This document shows positions 10,544-45,747 of a stretch of 64,000 nt of DNA, piece by piece. This DNA is from Eledone cirrhosa. Lineage: Eukaryota. Numbering within the stretch: the stretch's first letter is position 1; each line of letters begins with the position of its first letter. The notes under the pieces were generated by a model. It was not told the DNA's origin. It searched no databases and was given only the letters and a program-made list of their open reading frames with translations. The DNA lies in contig OZ024741.1 of assembly GCA_964016885.1 (NCBI GenBank), positions 140,740,001 to 140,804,000 of the forward strand, in the 5' to 3' direction. The translations under genes were made by a program, and so were the position numbers.

Positions 10544-13500
10544 CTACAGGATGGTATACAGAGAAGGCCCATTTACACGAGCCATTCTCGCCACTATCAC
10601 CCACCTTTCATAAAACTTCCTGTGGCCAAGCACCTCTCTCTCCATTCTTATCCTTCTTCCGAAGTGATATCCGAAGAAGTAGACCAGACTATGGCCAGAG
10701 AGGAAGTTGCCTGACCTCAGACCTTTCAATCGTGTCCACCAAACAACCTCTTTCAACATGGCTATTACGCACAGAAAAACCGCCTTTGCTTCCTTCGTGA
10801 AGAGGGGAGGCGGTTTGATTGTCATCACGGACTCGGCGGTCAATTTAATCGGCGCCACCCGCGACAGCAGTTGTTCGGCGTAGCCCCACAGATCAGCCAC
10901 GCCGGGACATTGCACCAATGCGTGCGCAACGGTTTCTTCGTGACGCACGCATCTAGGGCAAATCTTTTTTGAGGGATAACTGCCCGGGCGCCCGTGTCTG
11001 TAGAGCCTCTCTCGAACGGGTAGAGCCCCCCGGTAGCACTGCCAGGCCAGTGACTTCTGGAAGTTGTCCATTGGTCCTGGGCCGAAAGTCCTACCGAACA
11101 GGCTGGCCAGTTCGTCTTCTTCCATGTCCAGCGACTCTCCAAGGGTGTCATCGCCCCTGCTAGCCACCAGCCCTCTATAGAATGATGAGGTGGATTCTCC
11201 ACCGATGGCCTCGCCCGCTTGCCAGAGAGCCCAGAGCGCCTGAGCACACTCAGTGTGCCAGTCTCCCAGTTTTCCGGATCTTTGCTTGACCCAGGACTGT
11301 AGCTCGGTGAGCGAGACGAGTCTCGGAAAGGCTCGTTTCACGAACGGATCCCACACCGGTTGACCAGTGAGGAATACCTGTAGGTGCCGTAGCCTTAATG
11401 CGTGCCTACGCATCATCAACCACGGCATCCCCAGCCCTCCTTTCGAAGGTTGTTGGCAGCAGATGGATCTTCTCACCATAGGAGGACGCTTCTTCCAAGG
11501 AAATTGGAAGAGCATGCGTTCTATGGTGGTGAGTGTTTCCTTAGGGCAAGGCACGACAGTCAGGCGGTAGTAAGTGACGGACGCTATGTAAATGTTCGCC
11601 ACCTCCGCCCGGCCTTTTAGGGACAGCTTACACTTGGCCCATTTCTGGGTTAGTGCAAACACCTTGTTCGTAACCTCGTTCCAGTTCTTTTCCACCTGGA
11701 GGTCCGGTCCAAACCAGACCCCAAGCAACTTTACCGGGCCCTCCGTCCAGTGTCCGACGACACCGTCAGGAGGCATCGGTCTGCCTCTCCACGTTCCGAG
11801 TTGCAGCCCGATGGATTTTTCCCGGTTCAGTTTCGCTCCTGACAACCTTTCGTACTCCTCCAGTAAGGTACCGATCGCCTCGATCTCCGAGTCGGTTGAT
11901 ACCATTACTGTTACGTCATCGGCGTAGGCCGACACCGCTTTGCTCAATCCTGGTTCCAGGGGGATACCCTGCAACAACTCCAACTTCCTCAGTAAAGGCT
12001 CGAGAGTCAATACGTACAGAAGGGAGGAGAGAGGGCACCCCTGTCGAATGGATCGTGTGATTTCGAACGGCTTCGAAAGGTAGCCGTTCACCTTGATCCT
12101 AGAACAGATGTGGTTGCTATGTAGGGCAGTGATCCAGCCTCTGAAAACAGGACCGAACCCAGCCGCCGCTAGCACCGCATCCTGGTAACCATGGTCGACC
12201 CTATCGAAGGCCTTAGACTGATCCAAGTTGATCAGGGCCCCACCGAAGCCGGGTTTGTTGCCAACCCTCTCTATGATGTATCGCATGAGGTGGACGTTAT
12301 CGTGAATGGACCTGGATGGGATAGCACATGTCTGCGCATCTCCCACCAGGCCACCCACGACAAGCGCCAACCTCTTTGCTAACACCTTGGCCAAAATCTT
12401 TAACTCTGTGTTTAGCAGGGTTATGGGCCGAAAATTATTTATACTATCCCCCTTGTTCTCGTCCTTCCTCACCAGCGTGACTACGCCCTTGGCTACAGAA
12501 CAAGGAATTCTCCCGTTCTGCTGCCAATTGCAGTAGACCGCTTCGAGGAGTTCGGAGAAGAAGACCGGCATTGCTAAATAAAGTTCGTAAGGTATACCAT
12601 CGAGACCTGGAGATTTGCGTCTGCTGCATTGGCTCAGCGCATCTCCGATCTCATCAGCCGAGATTGGTCCCTCGCAGGACTCTGCCTCTTCGCTCGAGAG
12701 ACGCGGCAGGCCGTCGAGGTATGGACCGAAATCCACGCCCCGCCCGGACCCTCGCCTCCCCCGAACAATCGGGCAAAGTGCCTTTGAAAGGCCTCGCACA
12801 TCTGCTTAGGCTCCCGGATCACCCGTCCATCTTCGTCTTGCAACGACCGGATGGTGGATCGATTTCCACTCTTAGCTTCTGTCACGCGGGCCCATCCAAC
12901 GGCTTTGGCCCCCTCATTACCTAGAGCACGTATTTTACTTCGAATGACGCAGCCTTCGTGCTTTGCATCGAAAAACTGGTTCAAGGCCGTCCTCGATGCC
13001 AGCACTCTGGCCACATCTTCGCTCTTGATTGCCTCTTCTAATTTACCTGTTAATTCTTTCTCGTTTCTATTCCTATCGGCAGCTAACATCTTGCTATAAC
13101 TTATTGATTCTGTTCTAATCTCTCTTTTGAGAGATGCCCACCATCGGTTGTTGACGATTGCACCCGTCAACCTCTCCTTAACTAATCTGCTAATCCGGTT
13201 TCTGTAAGTCTCTTTTGCCGGTAAAGACAAATTAAGTTTCCAGTAACCGGGACCCTGTCTATGTGTTTTCTCGAGATTGACCACGCAGGTCACTAATTTG
13301 TGATCCGTGTAGCCAACCGTGCGCATTTCTGGACAGCTTAATATGTCCCTATCCTTACTTCTAACTAAGAATCTATCTAAGTACGATCTAGATTGACCAC
13401 TGTGGTTTCTCCAAGTCCAGGTAGGCACAGTTGGAAAATCTAGTCAATATCTATCGACCAAGTTAAAACGGTCGAGTAACCCCTTGAGGCTGTTACACCC

Positions 13501-13979
13501 CCTCTATTAGGACATGCTCCTGCATAGTCCCAACGTGCATCCAGGATGTCATTCCAATCCCCCGCTAGAAGCAGGGAACGCGACGTTCCCAGAAAAGTCT
13601 CCAAACGCTGGAAGAAGTCGGGCCGTTCAGCTCCGAAAGGGGAGTAGACGGCGACCAGTCTCAAGGCCGCACTTTCACTACTGCCAACGTCTAGCACCAA
13701 CAAACGACCCTCCGGGTCCGAGTGCACAACCTGTATGGCAAGACCCAGGTGTTTTTGCAGCAGTACGACAACCCCACCCCCACCTCCAGGTTGACAGAGA
13801 GATGCATGCACCTCAAAGTCATCGAAGGTGGGGGCCAGCTGCCGCACGACGCTGATTCGAGTCTCACAGATAACCATTACATTTATACTACATGACCTGA
13901 GGTCATTTAGAAGCTTTGCTTGCTTCCAAGTTGAGCCCAGGCCACGTGCATTCAAACATCCTACTCTTAACACATCCAT
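10544..13979 (-). pseudogene. Tx1 ORF2: APE endonuclease, RT and C-terminal zinc finger, with two frameshifts
   Basis: LNARGL, LAGDWN, SYLDRF, TDHK, GPGYWKLN, KSPGLDG, RPITLLN, DQSKAFD, RQGCPLS, YADD, CPRC..EETVAHALVQC. ORF pieces 13440-13979, 12634-13428, 10544-12799. Confidence 0.93.
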
Positions 13980-14012
13980 GTGGGCGGCAGAGCCAAAGGA
14001 GAGTGTAGAGAC

Positions 14013-15913
14013 CTACCTTTCCGCTTCCCGGGGTTCGGGTTGCACGACTTCCATGGGGTCGGGGGTGTTGGGTGAAGAGGTGTCTTGTGGTTGTGTGGGG
14101 TCGTCAGTGTGTGGTGGGGTTGGGGTGTTTGGAGTTGTGTTGGGGAGGGGAAGGGGAGGGGGAAAGCTTTTTAGTAGGACGCGGTTTATGGGTTTGACAG
14201 AGGGTGGTCCTACGTCCTCCTTAAAATCCTTTTTTAGTTTTTGGTAGAGGTTCATTGGGATCTTTATTAGTTTTAAATGTGGGTAATTTTCTGACGAAAC
14301 AAAGTTTACACCTTCGGTTTGTACCGAAGGATTATTGTATATGAGCTCATTTAATTTATTATTGTTTCTGTTGATGTAAGTATAGTGTAATGTCTTTTTT
14401 CCGATGGTGTGAGTGTTTCGAAGAGGGGAGGGGCAGGTTTGGTTTTGTTTGTTGCTCGAGGGGTGTTTTCTGTTTTGTTGGATTGTGTTGAGATTTGGGT
14501 GGGGGTTGTTTGTCCTTGTGTGTTTTGCACATGTTTTCTTTTTTTCCTTTTAATCTGTCTGAAGGACTCCGTTTCTTCCTCCGAATTCGTTGGGTTATCT
14601 TCAGTGTTGGAGGGAAGAGGTATGTTTGCTGGTAATGTTTCCGTGTTGGTTTTCTTTGTGGGGGAGATGGATGTCACTATGTTAGACTGTGTTGTGTGTT
14701 GTGTCTGCGGTGGTTGTGTTGTTTTATTGAGTGAGAGGTTGGGTGGGCCTGTATTTTGTTTTGGGGTAATGTGTTGTGACTGTTTGTGTTGTGGTGGTGT
14801 TGTGGTTTTACTGAGGGACGGGTTGGGTGGGACTGAGTTTTGTTGTTTGTTTATCTGTTGTGGTGGTGGTGGTGGAGCTGGTGTTGGTAGCAGGGTTTTC
14901 TGTTTGTTGAGTTGGGGACAAGCGGCCTTCAGGTGCCCTCTGCCTGCACAGATATGGCAGGACGGCCTTCTCCCCTCCACGCTAATGTTTATATACCCGT
15001 GGTCCTCTAATAGGATTCTGTCGGGTATTTGGGCGATGCGTTCAGGCTTCATTTGTACTACCAGCTCTATACCTGTTCCACTGAACGCATTGCCTGTGGT
15101 TTTCCCAATGGAAATCACGTTGTCATTCACTGGATCGATGAAGCCAGCTATGAGCCAGCAGTAGTCCACATCTGGCATCATTGCATCCAGCCATATGCGT
15201 TGAGTTCTTTTCCCCATATAAGATGGATAAAAGGTGAAATTTTTCGAACGAATCGGTGACAAAGCACATTTTTTTGCCGCCGATTCGTTCTTCATGATAA
15301 TTGCTAGGCTTCCATACAGTCTGTCTTTTCTTATGAAAGTGGTTTCATTAAGTACTTCTGTGAGTACTGTTTTGATATCTGCTTGAGAAGGCTGTTCAGG
15401 TTTTTTTGTACTGTTGTTGATGGTCCGAAACTTGACCGTTCGGCTTTCAATGTCTTTCGTGAATTCTTGAGGCATTTTTACGGATAAAATACCATTCTCT
15501 CCTTCACTTATGTATTGTTTGGCGTCCGTGATCCTTCGTACCACATCTGAAATGTTTTCCGCTATATAAGTCAAAGATTTCTTTGTTTTCTGTGCAAATG
15601 AAATCTTGTCGTCTGCTTTGTTTTCTGATATGGTGTTATTTTCAACTGTTATTTTTGTGTTTGTTGTGTCTTTGTTTGTGTTATTAGTATTGTCATGCAA
15701 TTTTTCAAATTTTTTTTTTTCGTTGTTGGAATCCAAGTCCAGATTTGTGTTTTCGTCATTTAATTTTTTCTCCGCAGATTCGTCTGTTTTTATTTTAATT
15801 TTTCCTTCCTTCTCTATGACGTTAGTTGGGAAGGAAGGGAGGACTAAAGCGTGCGAGCTTACAACTCTTACCGCTGTCCCCCCACCACTATTTTCGTTCG
15901 CTGCGTTTAACAT
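14013..15913 (-). pseudogene. Tx1 ORF1, gag-like with CCHC zinc knuckle, broken near 14300
   Basis: CHICAGRGHLKAAC knuckle followed by a Pro/Thr/Gln-rich region. Lies directly upstream of ORF2. Confidence 0.85.
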
Positions 15914-16145
15914 TTCTGTTAGACGATTGAAATTTTTTACACAAAATTTTTTAAAACAGGTTTTTCACCTCTAGGAGGGGTGAAGATGAGCTGACCCACC
16001 GCCTGACAGTTCAGACGGAGGGTCAAGCTACACAATTGTATCAAAATTAAGTTTGAACTCACAAAATTTCCTCAATAAATTTGAACAAAACTTCTGTGCG
16101 AAGTGAATGACATCCACACTGTAGAACAGACGACAACTAGATTGA

Positions 16146-16465: not shown

Positions 16466-19040
16466 AGAGCAACTTCACACGACACCAGGAAGACCTAAAG
16501 AAAAGTTAGAGAGACGATTTGGAAATACAAAAATTAAAATTTGAACTCCAAATTACCCCAGTTGCAACAACAACTCACAGCTACAACAGAAAGACTAAAA
16601 TATAAGTCAACAGCACATAAACGACAAGTGCTAAATAGATTGTTTGCCAGAGATTCTAAATCAGTTTATCGCAGCTTCGGTGGCAAAAGCACAATCCCTG
16701 TAAATTACACCCCTTCAAAAGACCAGGTTGAGAGCTACTGGAGATCTGTGTGGGAAACGGATGACGGATTCAACAGACAAACTAATTGGCTAATAGAACT
16801 GAAACAGGACTACTGCCAACATGTCCAGACAAAACAATATGACATAGATGGGTCAATACTGGAAACAGCTCTACAGAAAATGTCGAATAGGAAATCACCA
16901 GGCCCAGACCTCATTACAGGATAATGGTTGAAGAATGTCACTTTCTATCGGCAAGATCTCATACGGCTGTTTACAGAAACCATTAAGGGCACACAAGAAT
17001 TTCCCAGATGGTTATCAACTCCCCAAAATAGTCAAACCGCCCAATAGCCTGCCAGAACATCATGTATAAATTATATACTGGGTGCCTTAACCTGTTCTTA
17101 CAGGATCACTGTGCTACCAACAGCATCATAACACCTGAGCAAGCTGGTGGAAAGAGGGAGGTGTGGGCTTGCATAGATCACCTACTAACTAATAAAATGA
17201 TTCAAGAAAAACAACAAAGAATCGCAGAAACATGACTGTGGTGTGGCTGGACTATCAAAAAGCATTTGATAGTGTACCTCATGGGTGGATTGTTAAGGCT
17301 TTACAGTTAGCCAAAGTCCCACAACTACTGGTAGCTGCTGTTGAACGTCTGACCAAGAACTGGTACACCAATTTGATCCTTAGAGGTGAGAAAGAGCAAG
17401 TTAAGACTGATACGATACATTACCAGAAGGGCATCTTTCAGGGTGACAATACAACCTCTACAGTCAGGTGACAACTACAGATATCTTGTACAGCGTGAGA
17501 ATGTCAGATATGATGGACTCATAAATAAGGAGAGAACCAGAACTGAATACCTCAGAAGAGTAAAAGAAAATATGGTCATCAGAACTGTCAGCGTACAACA
17601 AATACATTGCCCACAATACTTATGCTGTGTCAATTCTAACGCCAACATTTGGCCTGCTGAACTGGTCATTGCAAGAACTAAGTGAGATGAATGTTAGAAC
17701 TCGCAAACTTCTCAGTGTTACTGGGAACTTTAACATCAATGGTGATGTGGATAGGCTATACTTCTCACGCAAGGAAGGTGGCCTGGGTCTAAAATCCATA
17801 TTAACATCTTATGAGACCCGGATAGTAACACTGAAGCAACACCTTCAACAGAGGCAAAAGGTTGGCAACCATCTGGCCCAGGTTTATGAGCATGAAAAAA
17901 AATATATCATTAGAATAGCCACTGATCTGGAGGAGAGATATGGAATAAAGCCTGATATAAATCTCTCACCCAGAGAAATCGGAAGATCCTATTCAATGTT
18001 CAAACAAGATGAAAAAATTGACCAATTTACAGAAGAAGTTGTGCATGGATACTTGAGACGTAAAACTCAGACCATAGAGGGGATAAACCACTCAAAAAGC
18101 CTGGCATGGAACTCCGACAAGTTTATGACATCACACCTTGAGGGATATCTCTATGCAATACAGGAACTCCCTACCAAATATCTGCTGCACAAAATGGGAG
18201 GGCCATTAGCTGACAATAAATGTAGGCTATGTAAAACAAAGATCGAGGATGTAAGCCACATTGTTGCCAGCTGCGAAAGAATGTCATCTCGCTACTACCT
18301 CCCCATGAGACACAATGGGATAGCTAGAACCATCTGGAACGCACTTCGGAATACAAAATTAACAACAAACGAGGAAGAATATATTGAGACAGATGGCACT
18401 AAGGAATACTGGTGGAACCTGAAAATAAAAACTGCCACCAAATTAAAGCACAACCGGCCTGATATTGTTGTTTGGGACCACACATTGAAAACGTGTTCTG
18501 TTGTGGAGATCAGCTGCCCACTTGATGTAAACGTTGTCAGAAAAATACAGGAGAAGGAGGACATCTACGGACCATTGATGAGGAGTTTACAAATCCAGTA
18601 TCCAAGATAAACCTTTAGCTTTATACCCATCATTATTGGAGTTATGGGTTATATACCAACCCGTTTGGACCAAAGTATGACTGAACTTGGATTTGCGGAC
18701 AAAGAGCGCAGCTCCCTAATTCATAGTCTACAAATGGCTGCGATAGCTGGCACCTTCAAAATTTGCAAAACATTCTTGCGATTCAAGGGATGACAATTTC
18801 TTTTCTTTTACAACCTTGCCACAAGGAAGGTGGCCGGTCAAAAAAATATACTCGAAATTTTGAGAAAGAGATGACATACACATTTTCACCTGTGGTTACT
18901 AGGACCCTGTGATATATTATTAACTGCCTCAGTACAAATCTTGAAACAGAAAGAACACAACTATTTAGGAAATTACAAGTACAATCCATTAATGGAACAG
19001 TAAAAATATATAAATCATTCCAAAAATTCTGCATCTAATA
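16466..19040 (+). mobile_element. R4/Dong-like LINE with restriction-like endonuclease, 5'-truncated and decayed
   Basis: KSPGPD, WLDYQKAFDSVPH, KGIFQGD followed by a deletion removing the YxDD region, RLY..RKEGG.GL, CRLC..EDVSHIVASC, RH, HNRPDIV, EISCP. 3' boundary approximate. Confidence 0.85.
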
Positions 19041-33701: not shown

Positions 33702-33862
33702 GGAGGAGGTTATAGTTCACTTGAAGCATTGTGTAATGAGGTATAAACGTTAGAATATGTGTAATAAGGCCAAGACAATGCAGATATGGACATAGAAAAA
33801 AGAATGCAATAGTGAGAGATATTGATGAGAATTCGTCTTTCACCTTGAATTTATTTAAATGT

Positions 33863-33897
33863 CCTTAATTTTCGAGATAATATCTCTTCTTCGGAGG
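33863..33897 (-). ncRNA. Hammerhead-like motif, U4C core variant
   Basis: cct-CCGAAGA-A-GAGAT att ATCTC-GAAA-ATT-A|agg. Palindromic stem III AATT. Same sense as the ORF. Confidence 0.6.
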
Positions 33898-34282
33898 GAA
33901 GTAAAAGTCTCAGACCAGCGTCTTAAATTTCCAATGAAGCCATGCTGACCGGAAATAGTATAGAGTTCTAACTTTAATATCAAATAATTAAAATTAGGTG
34001 GGTAAAGAGTAGTCTCCCTTTAAGAGGGGTTTGTTTATGTTTTTGTTGTGTTTTTTTAAATTTTATATGCGTGCCTGTATATGTGTGTGGGAGAAAGCAT
34101 GAAGGTGTAGGTATGTGGGTGTGTGTGTGTGTGAGTGTGGGAAGATAGGTCTAATCGTAAAAGTGGGGGGTAGGTGTTATCTAGTGTTAGAACTGGTTTT
34201 GTGTGTGTGTGTGTGAGAGAGAATAAGTGGAGGTGTGCGCGTGCGTGTGTGTGGGGTGCGTCAAGTGGTGCTAGAGGCCCTA

Positions 34283-35842
34283 TCAGGTTATAAATTGGGT
34301 GTTGAGCTCTAGTCTATTATTGATTGGTGGATGTGTTCTATCTATAATGAATGCTTCCTTGATTCTAAGATTGCCGAGGTTTCTTTCTTTAGTTTCTATC
34401 CTAACTGTTATGTTTTTATCAGTGTTTTTGCATTTAACTAGGTGTTTCTTAAATGAGGAAGCGTTAGTATTGAGGTGTTCTTTTATTCTTATGTGGAGTG
34501 GTCTGGTGGTGCTACCTACGTAGAAGTTGTTGAATTTGTCACACTCTAGTCTGTAAACTACGTAAGCCTGGTGGCATAGGTCTGTGTCGTTGATGGGGCA
34601 GTTGGCTAGTCTGCAGCAGTTGTCATGTCTGGTGGAGTGTCTCTTAGCTAGCCGTCCACGCAAAGAAGGACCCGAATGGGCCAGTTGAATATCCAGACCT
34701 TCTCGTCTGATGGCTCTGCGGATGGCTGTTGTTGTTTCTTCACTGAAGTGTGGGAGCTTCAGGAAGCAAGTGTTAGTGCCTCGGGTGTGGTGTCCTCTGT
34801 TCTTTCTGGCACGGTTTGTGGTGGATGTCGTGTATCCGTTCAGTTTGAGTACTTCCAGGAAATGTGTGGTGTGTGTGTCTCGGTCTCTGGCGCCGGTGCA
34901 TTTGTTCTTGATACGTGCCAGTTCGTTCTTTATGTATCCGAACTTGGCACCGAGTGGGAGGGCCGATCTGAAATGTACGAACAGGTCCCTGCTGGCGGAT
35001 TTTTTATAGAAGCAGGTGTGGATGTTGCCTTCCTCTGTTACCCTGAGTTGGAAGTCCAGCAGGGATAGGGATCCGCGGTCATCGGGGTGTTCTATGCTGA
35101 ACTTTATACTGGCGTCCATGCTGGAGAATGTTGTGTATATTTTCTCTGCCTCTTCACGGGATGATGTAAGGATGAGTATGTCATCTACATATCGGGTGAA
35201 GAAGGCATGGGAATGGCAGGTGTTGAGGGCTCGGCATTCTAGTTGGTTCATGTAAGTGATGGCCAGCAGGCCAGAGAGGCTGGATCCCATGGGTAATCCT
35301 GTTGTCTGTCTGTATGTGTGGTGGTGGAAGGTGAAGAACGTGTTGTCTACTGTGAAGGACAAAAGTTGGTGTATGTCCGTCGGGTGGAGGCCGTAGCAGT
35401 GGATGTTCTCTGCGACCACGTAGTCCGTCAATAAATCGACAGCTGGGTGAGCGGGGACTGTAGTGTAGAGGGAGACAACGTCGAGGCTAAAAGCGTATTT
35501 ATTAAGTTTAAGTTGTTCTGGCTGGAGTTGGTGTAATCTACGTATAACTTCGTCGGAGCTACTGACATGTCCGGGGAAGGTGGAGAGTAGAGGCTTGAGG
35601 ACCTGGGAGAGAAGCCAGGAAATTTTGTATAGGGGTCCTTCTATGCTAGAGACGATGGGTCTTATATGCGTCTTAGTGCTATTCTTGTGGGTCTTGATGA
35701 GGTGGTAGAAAGTGGGCAGTCTGCTATTTCTAGTGGTGTAGTTGAGTTTAATTTTATTCGGGAGTTGTCTTCTCCTACAGATATCGAACCAAATGGAGTT
35801 GGTCTGTTTTTCGATTTGGGCTGCGGTCATGTCCGGGATCAC
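34283..35842 (-). CDS. PLE reverse transcriptase plus GIY-YIG endonuclease (N-truncated; possibly Nematis-like)
   Basis: LIKTHK, RPIVS, SLDVVSLYT, GLPMGSSLS, RYVDD, LSLLD, VVY..C..YVGSTTRPLHIRIKEH, KEAFII, P.IN. Confidence 0.92.
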   Translation of the reverse strand: MIPDMTAAQIEKQTNSIWFDICRRRQLPNKIKLNYTTRNSRLPTFYHLIKTHKNSTKTHIRPIVSSIEGPLYKISWLLSQVLKPLLSTFPGHVSSSDEVIRRLHQLQPEQLKLNKYAFSLDVVSLYTTVPAHPAVDLLTDYVVAENIHCYGLHPTDIHQLLSFTVDNTFFTFHHHTYRQTTGLPMGSSLSGLLAITYMNQLECRALNTCHSHAFFTRYVDDILILTSSREEAEKIYTTFSSMDASIKFSIEHPDDRGSLSLLDFQLRVTEEGNIHTCFYKKSASRDLFVHFRSALPLGAKFGYIKNELARIKNKCTGARDRDTHTTHFLEVLKLNGYTTSTTNRARKNRGHHTRGTNTCFLKLPHFSEETTTAIRRAIRREGLDIQLAHSGPSLRGRLAKRHSTRHDNCCRLANCPINDTDLCHQAYVVYRLECDKFNNFYVGSTTRPLHIRIKEHLNTNASSFKKHLVKCKNTDKNITVRIETKERNLGNLRIKEAFIIDRTHPPINNRLELNTQFIT

Positions 35843-36026
35843 TGTGTACAGTTAACTGTCGCTTAGGTGTTCGAAGTCTAGGTTATTGTATGTGGCTTGA
35901 GAGATGACGCAGAACTCTTTACCCACCTAATTTTAATTATTTGATATTATAGTTAGAACTCTATACTATTTCCGGTCAGCATGGCTTCATTGGAAATTTA
36001 AGACGATGGTCTGAGACTTTTACTTC

Positions 36027-36061
36027 CCTCCGAAGAAGAGATATTATCTCGAAAATTAAGG
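36027..36061 (+). ncRNA. Hammerhead-like motif (U4C) in the inverted pLTR copy
   Basis: Identical to 33863-33897 (rc). Confidence 0.6.
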
Positions 36062-36175
36062 ACATTTAAATAAATTCAAGGTGAAAGACGAATTCTCATC
36101 AATATCTCTCACTATTGCATTCTTTTTTCTATGTCCATATCTGCATTGTCTTGGCCTTATTACACATATTCTAAC

Positions 36176-36262
<87 letters not shown>

Positions 36263-36352: not shown

Positions 36353-36396
<44 letters not shown>

Positions 36397-36499
36397 GAGA
36401 AAATTGAGGTTGGTAATGGCACATGGAATATATAAGAGACAGAATACTTTTTTGTGAAAAAACATAATTTTATAAGGTAAGGAAATAATAAAGGCTATA

Positions 36500-36549
36500 A
36501 AAAATGACCGGTTTCGATGGGTCTGCAAAAGCCATCTTTTCAAATGTTG
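36500..36549 (-). ncRNA. Hammerhead ribozyme (U3-A8 variant) in the inverted pLTR copy
   Basis: Reverse complement of 41669-41716. Confidence 0.7.
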
Positions 36550-36910
36550 ATTAATATTAAGAAAAATTAATAATACGAAGAGTTAAAATTTGAGATTTGA
36601 AAATTCAAGTATAAAATTCATTGTGGGATTTCATAGCAGTTTTCATCTAGGTAGCAACAACAGGTTGACTGCTGTGTCCCTTTCTGGTAGTGAATGAGAA
36701 GTTATTTGGGGTGTGGGTTATTTTATAAAGGTCAGATTTAGCAATCGCCAACTGGCCAGCTGCTGGTCAGTGAGGGGGTGGAAGCAATATACATACACAT
36801 ATCTTCCTGTGGTGGGTAGGAGAGTGGAGCGTGATAGAAAGGGATTTAGTGCACTTACACCTATATATACACACATACCTTCATCCACACATACATACAT
36901 ATACATATAC

Positions 36911-36951
<41 letters not shown>

Positions 36952-37008
36952 CACACATACATACACACACACATACATATACATACACACATACACATAT
37001 ATACACAT

Positions 37009-37075
<67 letters not shown>

Positions 37076-37148
37076 TATATATATACATACACATACATCC
37101 AGATACACACATACATACACACACACACACACACATATATATATGCAC

Positions 37149-37190
<42 letters not shown>

Positions 37191-37274
37191 CCACACATAC
37201 ATACACACACACACACATATATATATACATACACACATACAAAAATACACACACACACACATATATATACACAT

Positions 37275-38425
37275 ACCCAAACCACCACACCGACTGACAA
37301 CCAAATTTATTTAAACGTTCAAAACGTATGCAACTCCATCGAAAAACTTATGAATACCAACACAGAACAAACGACATTGCTCCATATCAAAAACCAAATG
37401 GGACACCTCTGGAAAAAACATCTAAAAACCAGAAAATTCACTTTCTGGAATATGATAAAAAACCTCAACAAAGCTGGAATTTATCAAAAATGGATTAACT
37501 CAACACCGATAGTTTTACCACGTAAATTCCAAATAAAGCATATTACAAACGAACCTGAACCAGAAAGAAAACTCCGTGAACAAATGTCACTCACCAGGAT
37601 AAACATGGAAATAGAACTCCTAAAATTAAGGGCCACCTCAAACGAGCAAGAGTATAAGGATACTGATAAAAATATGGAGGAAGAATGCACTAAAAAGGCC
37701 GAGGGAACAACCCTACAAAATTTAATCAAATCGTGGAAACAGGACTGCGAGAATGCAGAAACTATTTCCCTCAAACGGTGGGAAAATCCGAAAACTGGTT
37801 CCTCAAATATGAAGAAGACTTTAAAAGGACGCACCAAACAGGTAACCCCTTTATAAAGCATTTGAACATAACAAGAACTACAACAGACACATTTACACCA
37901 CCAAACCCAACACACACTAACCACAGGCACATCCCCCACCAACACAAACCAAATACGGCCAACTACACCAAAAGAAACACACCCAACCACCACAACACAG
38001 GTTTCCGTAGAAATGCCCCCTACATAAACCAACGACGAAATAACATAGATCCAACTCACAACACACACACCACATTCCTCAGAAGAAATCCACCCAGACC
38101 ACTTGAAATCACAACAGAACTTACCCACAACCACACCAGACATCACCCTCAATCCAACAAAAGACAACTCCCCAATCTCAACACACTGTACCACAGAAAT
38201 AACGCACCCAGACCACATGAACCAACAACAAAACCCTTGCTCATCAACAACCACAACACATACCACCCCCACCATCACATTCACCCTCATGAAACAACAA
38301 GCTACAGACCCACACGCAACAGACCAACAAAATATAATCACACACAAAACTACATTCCTTTTTTAGGGAAAAGCCTGAAATACCAGGATACTCGATGGCC
38401 CCCCCTCAGGAGAAACCAAAAATAA
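37275..38425 (+). pseudogene. Upstream ORF1 of the Neptune element (helical part, then N/T/H/R/P-rich tail), 5'-truncated, 1-nt deletion near 37785
   Basis: Non-microsatellite part of ORF 36831-37856 ([16 protein letters not shown]...LPRKF...EIELLKLR...WKQDC) continues in the 37733-38425 frame ([13 protein letters not shown]). Confidence 0.7.
38359..38387 (+). promoter_or_regulatory. Candidate -1 programmed ribosomal frameshift signal
   Basis: T TTT TTA (38359-38365) in ORF1 phase followed by GGG. The -1 frame is open from 38338 into RT. cctg/cagg hairpin 8 nt downstream. Confidence 0.65.
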
Positions 38426-40671
38426 TCAACCTCTCAAAGACACCTCTAACCAACACACAAATCAACATTTTAAGTAAGGGCCTGAAATTTACACCTACAC
38501 CACGTAAACCAAACTTCCCCGAAATGAAGGATGACATCATGGAATACTGCCGAAAGCTGCGACTAACGGAATTCTTCCACAACGACACCACCACTGAAGA
38601 CGAATCACTGGTTAGAAATAAAAGCAATTTCTTCCCACAAAAGGGAAGAAATAAAGCACTGGACACGTACTGCGAACACATCACCAACTTTCCCTATGAA
38701 AAAATTACAAATAAACACACGAAATCAAACCTATCTACACACGAATGGGAAGAATTATTCACACTTAGAAACAACCCTGAGATAACTATCAAAGAAGCCG
38801 ATAAAGGCAGTACTGTTGTCATTATGAATACGGACTACTATAGGAATGTCGCACTTAACATTTTAGAAAACAACACATACTATGAAAAAACAGAAAACTA
38901 CAAACACACCAAAACAATGGGGAACCTTTTGACCTTACTGAATAAATACCGCAACAGCTTAACCACAAAAGAGTTTAACTATATAAGCCACTTCAAATGC
39001 AATACAAGCTCTTTTTACGGCTTACCGAAACTCCACAAATGTAAACCCATAAACGATGCATGTGACACCTCAACCAACAATTACATTGAACTAACACCAC
39101 CAGAAGACCTAAAACTCAGGCCAATTATAGCAGGCCCTACATGTGAAACCCACAGACTTAGCAAGTTTCTGGACATCCTACTGAAACCCTTTCTACAACA
39201 TATACAGAGCTACATACGAGATGACCTTGACATGCTGAAACACCTCCCTAAAACAGTAAGTGCAAATATAATTCTTGTCTCCTTTGACGTAATAAACCTC
39301 TACACAAACATACCTCACAACTATGGAATAACAGCAGTCCAATACTGGCTTAACACACACCCATCAGAAATACCGACACGCATCAACGCAGATTTTATCA
39401 CTGACGGACTCCGCTTTATCCTACAAAATAACTACTTCGCATTCAATGGTTCAACATACAGACAAGTATCAGGTACGGCAATGGGCACGAAAGTAGCACC
39501 CACATATGCCAACCTAGTCATGGGATTCCATGAACAACAAATATACAGTCAGTCCCTTCTCTTATTTGGAGACTCTTTCCACACACACCTCAAAGCCAAT
39601 TGGAAAAGATATCTAGACGACTGCTTTATCCTATGGCAAGAAGACATGAACTCACTTACTACGTTTAAAAACATGATAAACAACATAGATAATAACATAC
39701 AATTCACAATGGAATCCAATCCTAAGGAATTAGCCTTCTTGGATATTCTCATCTCTGTAATAGACGGGAAATTAGATACAGATATATTCTATAAACCCAC
39801 AGATTCCAAGCAATAACTCTTTTTCACATCAAGTCACCCAAAACATACAAAACTTAACATTCCTTACAATTTGGCCAAACGTATATGTGCCATAGTATCA
39901 GATCCACCTAAACGGGAGCAAAGACTAAAGGAACTAAAAGACACCCTTATCTTAAGAGCCTTTCCACTTGAAATAATCAACAATGGAATAGACAGGACAA
40001 AACACCTAAATCCCCATCAACTTAACAATCCAAAACAGAAAACCACACTCAACACCCTGCCATATGTATCCACTTTCAACCCCAGAAATACCGAAATGTT
40101 TGATCACCTACACAAAAACCTCCCCATCCTACTTAAAGATGTAAAAATGAAGTCTATTCTTGAAACACACAAGATCCTTAAAAGTAAAAGACAACCCAAA
40201 TCACTTAAACGCATTCTCACTGGACCAAATATACCCAAACCAATACTCAACCATACAGTTACCAAATGTGGTAGAACAAACTGTGGAACGTGCCTCTACC
40301 TCACTGAAGGACAAACATTTACATTCAAAGATGGCCAAACATTTACAGTAAAAAACAATTTCACCTGCAACTCGGAGAACTTGATTTACGCAATAACTTG
40401 CGGTGGGTGCAAACACAACTACATAGGACAGACGGGCACCTCATTACGCAAAAGAATGACCATCCACCGCCAACAAATCCGGGACGCTAACACAAGAAAA
40501 ATCCCCTTGAGCAGCCATATTGCGAACTGCGCAGGAATGACACTACCCAACTTTAAAATATTCCCCTTCTACAAGTGCTCAGATTCGTTCACACAGCAAC
40601 AAAGAATAAACAAAGAAAATCTATTCCTTAACAAATTTAAACCAAAACTAAACGGGTTATCACCCCAATAG
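38395..40671 (+). pseudogene. Neptune RT, zinc finger and GIY-YIG with one premature stop (39814-39816)
   Basis: IINLS, LSKGLKF, KEADKG, YGLPKLHK, RPIIAG, FDVINLYT, GTAMGT, RYLDD, FLD, CGRTNCGTC, LIYAITC..C...YIGQT..LRKRM..H. Confidence 0.93.
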
Positions 40672-41056
40672 AATTGTCATAAAATATAAACACACATACG
40701 CACGGAATCACTACTATTAAAGACCAGAGACCAATTCTGTAGAATCAGGTTTATTCGTTGACAGACCATGCCTTTGTGTGACCAATACATCCATGTTAAA
40801 CCCTGCACGTGCACACACATATATCTCTCTATATATATGCGCACACAGAATTCACCACTGTCGGTTGCGGGGCCCAATCTACATGAAGAACTCAATGTGA
40901 TCAGAATGACTTGTATTTTAATTTCACTGTCCCAACTTCTTATATTATGGAAAAAATATATGTGTCTGTATGTATATATATATATATATTTGGAGGCCAT
41001 TTCTCTGTGTGTGGGTGTATGTATGTGTATGTGTGTGTGTGTATGTATGTCTGGGG

Positions 41057-41090
<34 letters not shown>

Positions 41091-41153
41091 GTGTGTATAT
41101 ATATATGTGTGTGTATGTATGTGTGTATCTGGATGTATGTGTATGTATATATA

Positions 41154-41200
<47 letters not shown>

Positions 41201-41257
41201 ATGTGTATATATGTGTATGTGTGTATGTATATGTATGTGTGTGTGTATGTATGTGTG

Positions 41258-41322
<65 letters not shown>

Positions 41323-41668
41323 GTATGTGTGGATGAAGGTATGTGTGTATATATAGGTGTAAGTGCACTAAATCCCTTTCTATCACGCTCCACTCTCCTA
41401 CCCACCACAGGAAGATATGTGTATGTATATTGCTTCCACCCCCTCACTGACCAGCAGCTGGCCAGTTAGCGATTGCTAAATCTGACCTTTATAAAATAAC
41501 CCACACCCCAAATAACTTCTCATTCACTACCAGAAAGGGACACAGCAGTCAACCTGTTGTTGCTACCTAGATGAAAACTGCTATGAAATCCCACAATGAA
41601 TTTTATACTTGAATTTTCAAATCTCAAATTCTAACTCTTCGTATTATTAATTTTTCTTAATATTAATC

Positions 41669-41716
41669 AACATTTGAAAAGATGGCTTTTGCAGACCCAT
41701 CGAAACCGGTCATTTT
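41669..41716 (+). ncRNA. Type I hammerhead ribozyme with compensatory U3-A8 core
   Basis: aacat-TTGAAAA-GATGG cttttgcagac CCATC-GAAA-CCGG-TC|atttt. Palindromic stem III ACCGGT, GUC triplet. Confidence 0.72.
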
Positions 41717-41865
41717 TTATAGCCTTTATTATTTCCTTACCTTATAAAATTATGTTTTTTCACAAAAAAGTATTCTGTCTCTTATATATTCCATGTGCCA
41801 TTACCAACCTCAATTTTCTCTATAACCTTCGTTTTGTGTAGAAAATTACACTTTTCATATATATT

Positions 41866-43943: not shown

Positions 43944-44081
43944 GGTATATCACTAGCCGTGTAGTATTACGAGTACATATTAATGCTAACTTACGCGTTA
44001 TTTCTCCATTGCTTTATTATCGTACTCACAACTCTCAGAATATTTATTGTCGTAGAAGAATGTTATTAAGTTCCATTATAG

Positions 44082-44580
44082 GGCCGAGGTTAACTTTGCC
44101 TTTCGTCCATACGGGGTCGATAAAATAAAGTACCAGTAATACACTGGGTAATTGCTAGCCTTGTGCCTAACGTAGAAACAATTATATATATTATAGGGCG
44201 GTGGATTACCAGTATCGGTAGAGGGTCGGACGCCATGCTTTCCAGCATAGTTACGTCCCTTTGCGGTCTGAGTTCAACTCCCGCCGAGGTTAACTTTTAC
44301 TTTCATCCTTACAGGGTCGATAAAATAAAGTACCAGTAATGTACTGTGTAATTGATGGCCTTGTGCCAAAAGTAGAAACAATTATATATATTATAGGGCG
44401 GTGGATTGGCAGTATCGGTAGAGGGTCGGACGCTATGCTTTCCAGCAGAGTTACGTCCCTTTACAGTCTGAGTTCAAATCCCGCCGAGGTTTACTTTGCC
44501 TTTCATCCTTACGGGGTCGATAAAATAAAGTACCAGTAATGCACTGGGTAATTGCTGGCCTTGTGCCAGAAGTAGAAACA

Positions 44581-44614
<34 letters not shown>

Positions 44615-44805
44615 GGCGGTGGATTGGGAGTATCGGTAGAGTGTTGGACGCCATGCTTTGCGGCATTGAGTTACGGCCCTTGCCATTCTGAGTTCAAATC
44701 CCGCCGAGGGTAACTTTGCCTTTCATCCTTACGGGGTCGATAAAATAAAGTACCAGTAATGTACTGGGTACTTGCTGGCCTTGTGCCAAAAAGTAGAAAC
44801 AATTA
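44082..44805 (+). mobile_element. Head-to-tail array of four SINE copies (first truncated)
   Basis: Units start near 44082, 44197, 44397 and 44615. Spacers attatatatattatag or (att)n. Confidence 0.92.
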
Positions 44806-45747
44806 TATATATTATATACTTCTATAAGACCCAGCTATGTAGTAAATATGGCATAACTGTTTTTATTTATATGATAGTGTCTAGTTAACGTGCTAGAAAT
44901 TGAAGCTATCGAAAACACATTAGTGTCGATTACCTTCAACGTTTTTATTGTTCTATAGAATCTTTTCATATACACCACGACAAGCTGTGTTAGTTACAGA
45001 CAGAGAAAGTAAGTGTAAGATAAAACACTCTATGTTATGAACATTTTAAAGACACGAGTTAACAGTAAGATAATCATATTTTGGTGAAAATCTTATAAGC
45101 TCAGTTCACAATGAATATTATTACCTAATGCATACCGTAATGTAGCCATGTTGCACGTCTATGTGTCACCATTAAGTGTTTCCGGTACATATATATATAT
45201 ACAACCGAGCACTACAGACACCGTTTGCTATAGAATTCCATTTATATGTGAACGATATAGATTTTTAAAGAGTAGCAGTGCTCATAGAAATTGCCATGTT
45301 AAAGTGATTCCAAAAAAATAACCAATTTACTTAATGGCTTTGGAATATGAAAATATTAATCCAAAAAACAAGTTGAACACGAACTTTAGTTGTTCTGTTA
45401 CATCAAAACATATGTTTCATTGTGAGTATTCAATGATGTACTGCCGTTTGAAATTATTATTAAAATTAGAAATATATTCACAATACTACTGCCACTCATA
45501 AAATTTGGAAGTGTGGATTATTGTCCGTAATTATAGTCAAGGTTTTGAAATCATTAACAATTAGAATAGAAAACGTATATTGATTTAATGATTAGCTTAA
45601 ATGTATTTTATTGAAGGTATCGTTTTATTACATTAATCATTAATTAGTTTTCTAAAATTAAAGATAGGTCGTTTAGATAGAATGAATAACCTCTAAATTT
45701 ATAGCCGTTTGCTCTTGTACTAGATTTCTATCATTACGACCTATTGG

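Follow-up and report, generated by a model that had tools for sequence, protein, structure and literature searches.

An ancient, phase-locked predicted slippery heptamer in the overlap of two reading frames in a Neptune-like lineage of Penelope retrotransposons

Canonical endonuclease-bearing (EN+) Penelope-like elements (PLEs) are described as single-ORF retrotransposons in the accessible part of PMC8557442. In a killifish Neptune element ORF1 is short and does not overlap, and the available portion of that report mentions no frameshift (PMC12602865); the legend to Fig. 1 of PMC8557442, which names no clade, refers to PLEs in which ORF1 is set apart by a frameshift that has a pseudoknot. The -1 frameshift sites described in the available sections of the literature usually carry a stimulatory structure. 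The heptamer U UUU UUA is the site of HIV-1 and SFV, where a shortage of its Leu-tRNA also makes it slip, and slippage driven by a slowly decoded second codon is a route known from these sites (accessible parts of PMC6547452 and PMC6771820). No account of a conserved heptamer in endonuclease-bearing PLEs was found in the literature searched; no such site is reported in the accessible parts of PMC3846280, PMC5408684, PMC6515669, PMC4209133 and PMC6431247, and Arkhipova 2006 or 2017 (Terminons) may already describe one for Neptune.

The window analysed here, a stretch of 64,000 nucleotides from Eledone cirrhosa, contains a broken copy of a young, two-ORF, Neptune-like Penelope retrotransposon, damaged by a 5' truncation, one deletion and one premature stop. 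The copy, on the plus strand, is truncated at 37276 and lacks about 38 ORF1 codons including the start. Its 5' end is replaced by a pseudo-LTR-like, minus-strand copy of the element's own 3' end (36393..37275), found by comparison of the inverted arms, which are 826 nt long (36393-37218 and 40999-41824) and 91% identical; BLAST stretches the arm to about 37280. The conserved helical domain of ORF1 (37276..37879, plus strand), delimited by homologs, dN/dS and AlphaFold2, contains the 1-nt deletion that the first-pass annotation had proposed to repair. The deletion is present, near 37783, but is private to this copy, being absent from all 24 other copies that span the position, and the premature stop at 39814-39816 is likewise absent from 28/28 others. 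A low-complexity basic tail rich in T, P, N, H and R follows (37880..38425, plus strand), with 26 K+R against 8 D+E, and ends at the ORF1 stop at 38423-38425. The RT frame, closed upstream by a TAA (38335..38337, plus strand), opens seven codons before the heptamer T TTT TTA (38359..38365, plus strand), the predicted -1 frameshift site, and overlaps ORF1 by 88 nt. Within the overlap lie, on the same strand, a 4-bp hairpin, CCTG-N6-CAGG, 8 nt past the heptamer (38374..38387), an ATG in the RT frame (38395..38397) and a C7 run (38399..38405). ORF2, in the -1 frame (38338..40671, plus strand), encodes RT, linker and GIY-YIG endonuclease, with domain matches to RVT_1 (E 2.9e-7) and GIY-YIG (E 2.5e-6) in that order. 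A Cx4CxxC Zn-finger-like motif of Neptune/Nematis type, recognised in the sequence and by comparison with an alignment by eye, lies upstream of the endonuclease domain (40267..40293, plus strand). The 3' untranslated part (40672..41863, plus strand) carries a TA/GT microsatellite and is followed by (TA)n; its end at 41863 is common to many copies, and its final 39 nt or so have no counterpart in the inverted arm. The positions given in the first-pass annotation for the heptamer and its ORF1 phase, the opening of the RT frame, the ORF1 stop and the hairpin were all confirmed.

Several other features lie in the window. A second, unrelated, 5'-truncated PLE of a different family occupies 33742-36182 on the minus strand, between 269-nt inverted repeats at 99% identity, with a 522-codon frame (34283-35851) whose RT is 27% identical. 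A LINE-type element, recognised by eye, lies on the minus strand at 10544-15964, with a 537-codon frame containing a CCHC knuckle (14351-15964) and, after it, frames resembling endonuclease and RT whose overlap, near 12634-12805, is out of frame. A plus-strand frame of 348 codons at 17564-18610 resembles the C-terminal portion of a protein from another non-LTR retrotransposon, and three to four tandem copies of a unit of about 200 nt lie at 44048-44816.

The element was filed as Neptune-like on several features. Its RT is followed by a GIY-YIG domain with CCHH, the two Cys falling between its GIY and YIG counterparts and the two His downstream of them. The linker motif CGRTNCGTC (CX2-5CxxC) stands 24 residues before the EN cysteine, a long spacing which, judged by eye against the alignment in Fig. 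S2 of PMC8557442, is like that of the Neptune rows and unlike that of the short Nematis rows; RT motif 4 also resembles the Neptune rows, again by eye and in the same figure. Pseudo-LTRs, tandem or inverted insertions and a short tail are present. In one respect the element departs from the canonical single-ORF EN+ PLE, in that it has two ORFs. A hammerhead ribozyme was sought in the pseudo-LTR and gave neither an Rfam match at E<=1 nor a core by a simple pattern, which minimal variants can escape; the Rfam search returned only microsatellite-driven miRNA matches below the cut-off.

The first-pass annotation had described a gag-pol-like layout and had named a copy-specific indel as a possible cause of the frame offset. 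In the 3.0-Gb host genome the junction stretch had 692 candidate matches, and the 40 that were scored were all 98-100% identical. Both ORFs are whole and in the -1 relation in 8 of 14 copies examined, the ORF1 product being 421 aa long and the RT-EN frame 777 codons. Since the initial copies had been chosen by their likeness to the junction, flank-anchored patterns were used as a second sampling. Among the first 100 of 178 flank-anchored matches, 94 have T6A, five carry substitutions, one has T5 and none has T7. The comparison of copies thus supports the two-ORF layout as the state of the family and not as an indel of the window copy.

Besides the window's family (A), five further families (B-F) were found in the host genome via divergent ORF1 proteins. 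T6A in phase is present in 13 of 16 distinct copies of family B, 29 of 32 of C, 7 of 8 of D and the single copy of E, and in F by inspection; a family C element (locus L159, 140730000-140734600) lies about 6 kb ahead of the window. An RT alignment devoid of ORF1 or junction sequence yielded 23 outside loci, from which 12 were dropped where the RT N-terminus or the upstream DNA was missing. All 11 that were kept carry, upstream of RT, a frame that RT overlaps at -1, and in each of them six T stand in phase, as T6A in six, T6G in three and T6C in two; six of the upstream frames match the ORF1-core profile, three are too short and two are long with no match. Those RT relatives that are named come from molluscs (Octopus sinensis, Mytilus and Saccostrea). 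The same RT alignment search of viral contigs gave no match, nor did the ORF1 homolog P0010 when searched against metagenomes. Two contigs from bacterial genome bins (L234, L235) carry animal-type PLE RTs and are probably host DNA in those bins.

In every one of the 17 lineages a single run, exactly six T in length, reads T TTT TTN in the phase of ORF1 and lies inside the overlap, the N being A in 12, G in three and C in two. In the other two phases six-T runs occur in 0/17 lineages, the expected number being 0.025 per window and phase. The heptamer lies 45-132 nt ahead of the RT motif PKIIN, and at locus L221, where the entire overlap is 19 nt, it stands at the start of it. RT N-terminal identity among the 17 lineages is 22-77%; they are related, and four pairs are 61-77% identical, so that they amount to about 13 distinct groups. 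The conservation of heptamer and phase, which the first-pass annotation had proposed to check, and that of the overlap extend far beyond the family. On neither side of the heptamer are 5-mers shared more often than in shuffles. In two distant lineages, L225 and L226 (22-36% RT identity to the rest), the run reads T TTT TTC and lies 132 nt ahead of the RT motif, and the long ORF upstream gives no match to the ORF1-core profile.

The site could also be followed in proteins. Among the 150 listed of 514 ORF1 homologs, 72 shorter than 330 aa were left out and 78 kept, and 66 of these 78 have Phe-Leu (FL) in their last 70 residues, against 7.6 expected and a maximum of 17 in 500 shuffles; in the preceding 70-residue window FL occurs in six. 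In 23 of the 66 (within P0002-P0150) the protein stops exactly 10 residues past FL, which suggests a common spacing from heptamer to stop. Taken together, the DNA and protein comparisons identify an ancient, phase-locked predicted slippery site in a two-ORF, Neptune-like lineage.

ORF1 itself is a conserved protein. Its residues 1-240 have 514 relatives at E<=0.001. In the comparison of family A with family F, residues 71-240 show a dN/dS of 0.08, residues 1-70 of 0.21, the tail of 0.82 and RT of 0.11. Within family A shared variants give 0.14 and rare ones 0.79, on few changes. The ORF1 core is thus under purifying selection, which answers the dN/dS check that had been proposed. AlphaFold2 predicts an all-helical ORF1 core with five long helices (pLDDT 91); structure comparison returned generic helical bundles only (best Z 8.9, rmsd 6.2 over 124 residues), and fold searches among pdb and viral structures found nothing at E<=0.001, nor did the Atlas yield a usable match. 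No Pfam family recurs in more than one of 103 ORF1 members and none was credible for the window ORF1; the 514 representatives make up a new conserved domain with no Pfam family. No CCHC zinc knuckle is present in the 421-aa ORF1. The term gag-pol-like is therefore apt for the layout, which is shared by the whole copies and all 17 lineages; for ORF1 neither a knuckle nor a specific capsid match was found. A protein of fusion length is absent from the 150 listed ORF1 matches (longest 546 aa) and from 6,811 candidates of 875-2,495 aa, the latter being a weak test. The two longest RT relatives, P0257 (1,213 aa) and P0258 (957 aa), carry different N-termini and lack the ORF1 core.

An X XXY YYZ heptamer in the 0-frame phase thus lies within an overlap with an open -1 frame, and we consider the RT-endonuclease frame most likely to be reached by -1 ribosomal frameshifting at the six-U heptamer. 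Most ribosomes would stop at the ORF1 stop and yield an abundant helical protein with a basic tail. In a minority, tRNA-Phe on UUU and tRNA-Leu or -Phe on UUA, UUG or UUC would re-pair on UUU UUU, and the product would be an ORF1-RT-EN fusion of about 1,170 aa. Frameshifting is favoured because re-pairing needs a strict codon phase, which neither splicing nor polymerase slippage does. Several points weigh against it, namely the lack of a predicted stimulator, the noncanonical UUG, an acceptor-like TTTTTTAG at 12/17 sites, the C-run fusions and the gene model P0162. To our knowledge U UUU UUG, found in three of the 17 lineages, is not a canonical heptamer.

The hairpin that the first-pass annotation had pointed out is not supported as a stimulator. 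It is weak, at -4.9 kcal/mol, and loses one pair in the sister family F. The region in the window folds no better than shuffles (z +0.91, +0.73, -0.18 and +0.59), and across the 17 lineages the sequence 3' of the site likewise folds about as stably as shuffles do (mean z -0.17 over 75 nt and +0.09 over 150 nt), with a median best 3' hairpin of -3.5 kcal/mol and none at all in three. A simple pseudoknot scan found none in 12 of the 17 and chance-level candidates in most others, the best being that of L217 (5/100 shuffles). A stimulatory 3' structure is thus apparently absent from these predictions. With no conserved stimulator the rate of frameshifting is likely to be low and set jointly by the heptamer and the speed of decoding at its second codon.

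The least improbable alternative, which we still regard as very unlikely, is polymerase slippage, in which an extra U or T is put into the run, by RNA polymerase or by the RT of the element, and in-frame mRNAs or copies arise. Transcriptional slippage is mentioned for the HIV-1 site in the accessible part of PMC6771820, and runs of seven T were encountered in the old copy L205 and in one contig of run X4. However, that contig has a depth of 4.86, and an extra T seen in a single contig at a depth below 5, in a run of unrecorded kind, may be an error, while T7 was absent from all 100 listed family copies. Slippage by a polymerase has, moreover, no need of codon phase, yet the run is in one phase and exactly six long in 17/17 lineages.

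Less likely still is that RT is translated on a start of its own, the ATG at 38395 or another close to it, which ribosomes would use after reinitiation or leaky scanning. An in-frame ATG does occur in families A and F and at locus L218, but these are three of 17 lineages; in the other 14 there is no Met between the opening of the frame and PKIIN, and in several the first Met comes about 100-139 residues into RT. The ATG is thus not a feature of the lineage, and such a start would leave the heptamer unexplained.

Splicing, which the first-pass annotation had itself named as a possible refutation, was weighed in the form of an acceptor at TTTTTTAG joining an upstream exon to the RT frame. The acceptor-like sequence fits a 3' splice site, introns occur in PLEs, and one of 106 RT relatives, the Mytilus gene model P0162, bridges ORF1 and RT. 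That model, however, skips the heptamer and loses the IINLS motif. The AG is absent from the site in five of the 17 DNA lineages, so an acceptor is not lineage-wide, and in 24 of the 66 proteins the residue following FL cannot start with G. Splicing would not fix the phase of ORF1, yet FF[RS] occurs in 0/78 ORF1 homologs, and the two AG|GT donors in ORF1 are of phase 1 and would return to the ORF1 frame. Four sequencing runs of unrecorded kind carry no weight either way, none of the eight listed joints being GT..AG or ending at the site. We therefore consider splicing very improbable.

The C run in the overlap offers a last route. It varies from about 5 to 22 bases among copies (the window copy and L161-L200), with 51 of 100 listed copies off the modal length, mostly in older subfamilies. 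Of the 100 copies listed first among 166 matches, 60 retain the -1 relation, 19 would fuse the frames and 21 break them. Most copies with long C runs belong to older subfamilies, about 1-2% from copy L032; among those that are shifted, a few are young (0.3-0.7%). In single copies (L141, L142, L144 and L145) the two frames are fused and open throughout, over 1,157-1,289 codons. Two of 68 family copies had no junction pattern and were left out, leaving 66 aligned. That RT comes from such rare copies, fused in frame by homopolymer slips, with the -1 copies as passengers, is as improbable as splicing, for although fusing lengths and open fused frames exist, runs longer by at least four show no preference for any of the three phases (11/13/16, p 0.62), no variant common to at least three of the 66 aligned copies unites the fused ones, and the heptamer is retained in lineages devoid of the C run. 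We read the fused copies as slips in individual copies, which could still supply some RT. Given the fixed phase, and the failure of a shared acceptor, start or hairpin, the site is most likely one of the HIV-1/SFV kind that works with no stem-loop of the usual sort.

That a PLE ORF1 can be joined by way of a frameshift has, as a general idea, been published before, in the accessible part of PMC8557442. Added here are the breadth of the site, an ORF1 family under selection and the apparent absence of a stimulator. Since endonuclease-bearing PLEs are treated as single-ORF elements, annotation or cell work on them would miss half of the coding plan of this lineage. Hundreds of natural variants of one -1 site, constant only in six U's and their phase, make stimulator-free slippage on a heptamer, and what else tunes it, directly testable. 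It is possible, though we hold it as doubtful, that an ancient and still-amplifying animal Penelope lineage uses a bare six-U heptamer whose enzyme output is tuned in trans by tRNA supply or by ORF1, with ORF1 as a new family of retroelement structural proteins.

ORF1p, the upstream protein of LINE-1, is abundant, has no enzymatic function and contains long helices and basic residues, and ORF1 of the present element resembles it in position, helices and basic residues by analogy, with no sequence or fold match between the two. On this analogy with LINE ORF1p, ORF1 is likely to be the RNA-packaging part of the element. L1 ORF2 is not known to be produced as a fusion through frameshifting. The PLEs with a frameshift and pseudoknot are, we presume, the rotifer Athena/Terminon elements. 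As far as the legend in PMC8557442 allows the comparison, they share with the present lineage a coiled-coil-type ORF1 upstream of RT, joined to it by a frameshift; the present lineage differs in having an endonuclease, a genome-wide spread and no predicted pseudoknot. With the Neptune PLEs of the accessible part of PMC8557442 the element shares the RT, the Zn-finger-like linker, the GIY-YIG domain with CCHH, the inverted terminal copy with its short tail, and (TA)n; it is set apart from the canonical single-ORF EN+ PLEs of the same source by a separate, conserved ORF1 that overlaps RT at -1. In contrast to the HIV-1 gag-pol site, the present one has no conserved stem-loop and no Gag feature, and UUG or UUC replaces UUA in five of the 17 lineages; what the two share is U UUU UUA in the 0 frame, encoding Phe-Leu, with GGG following here.
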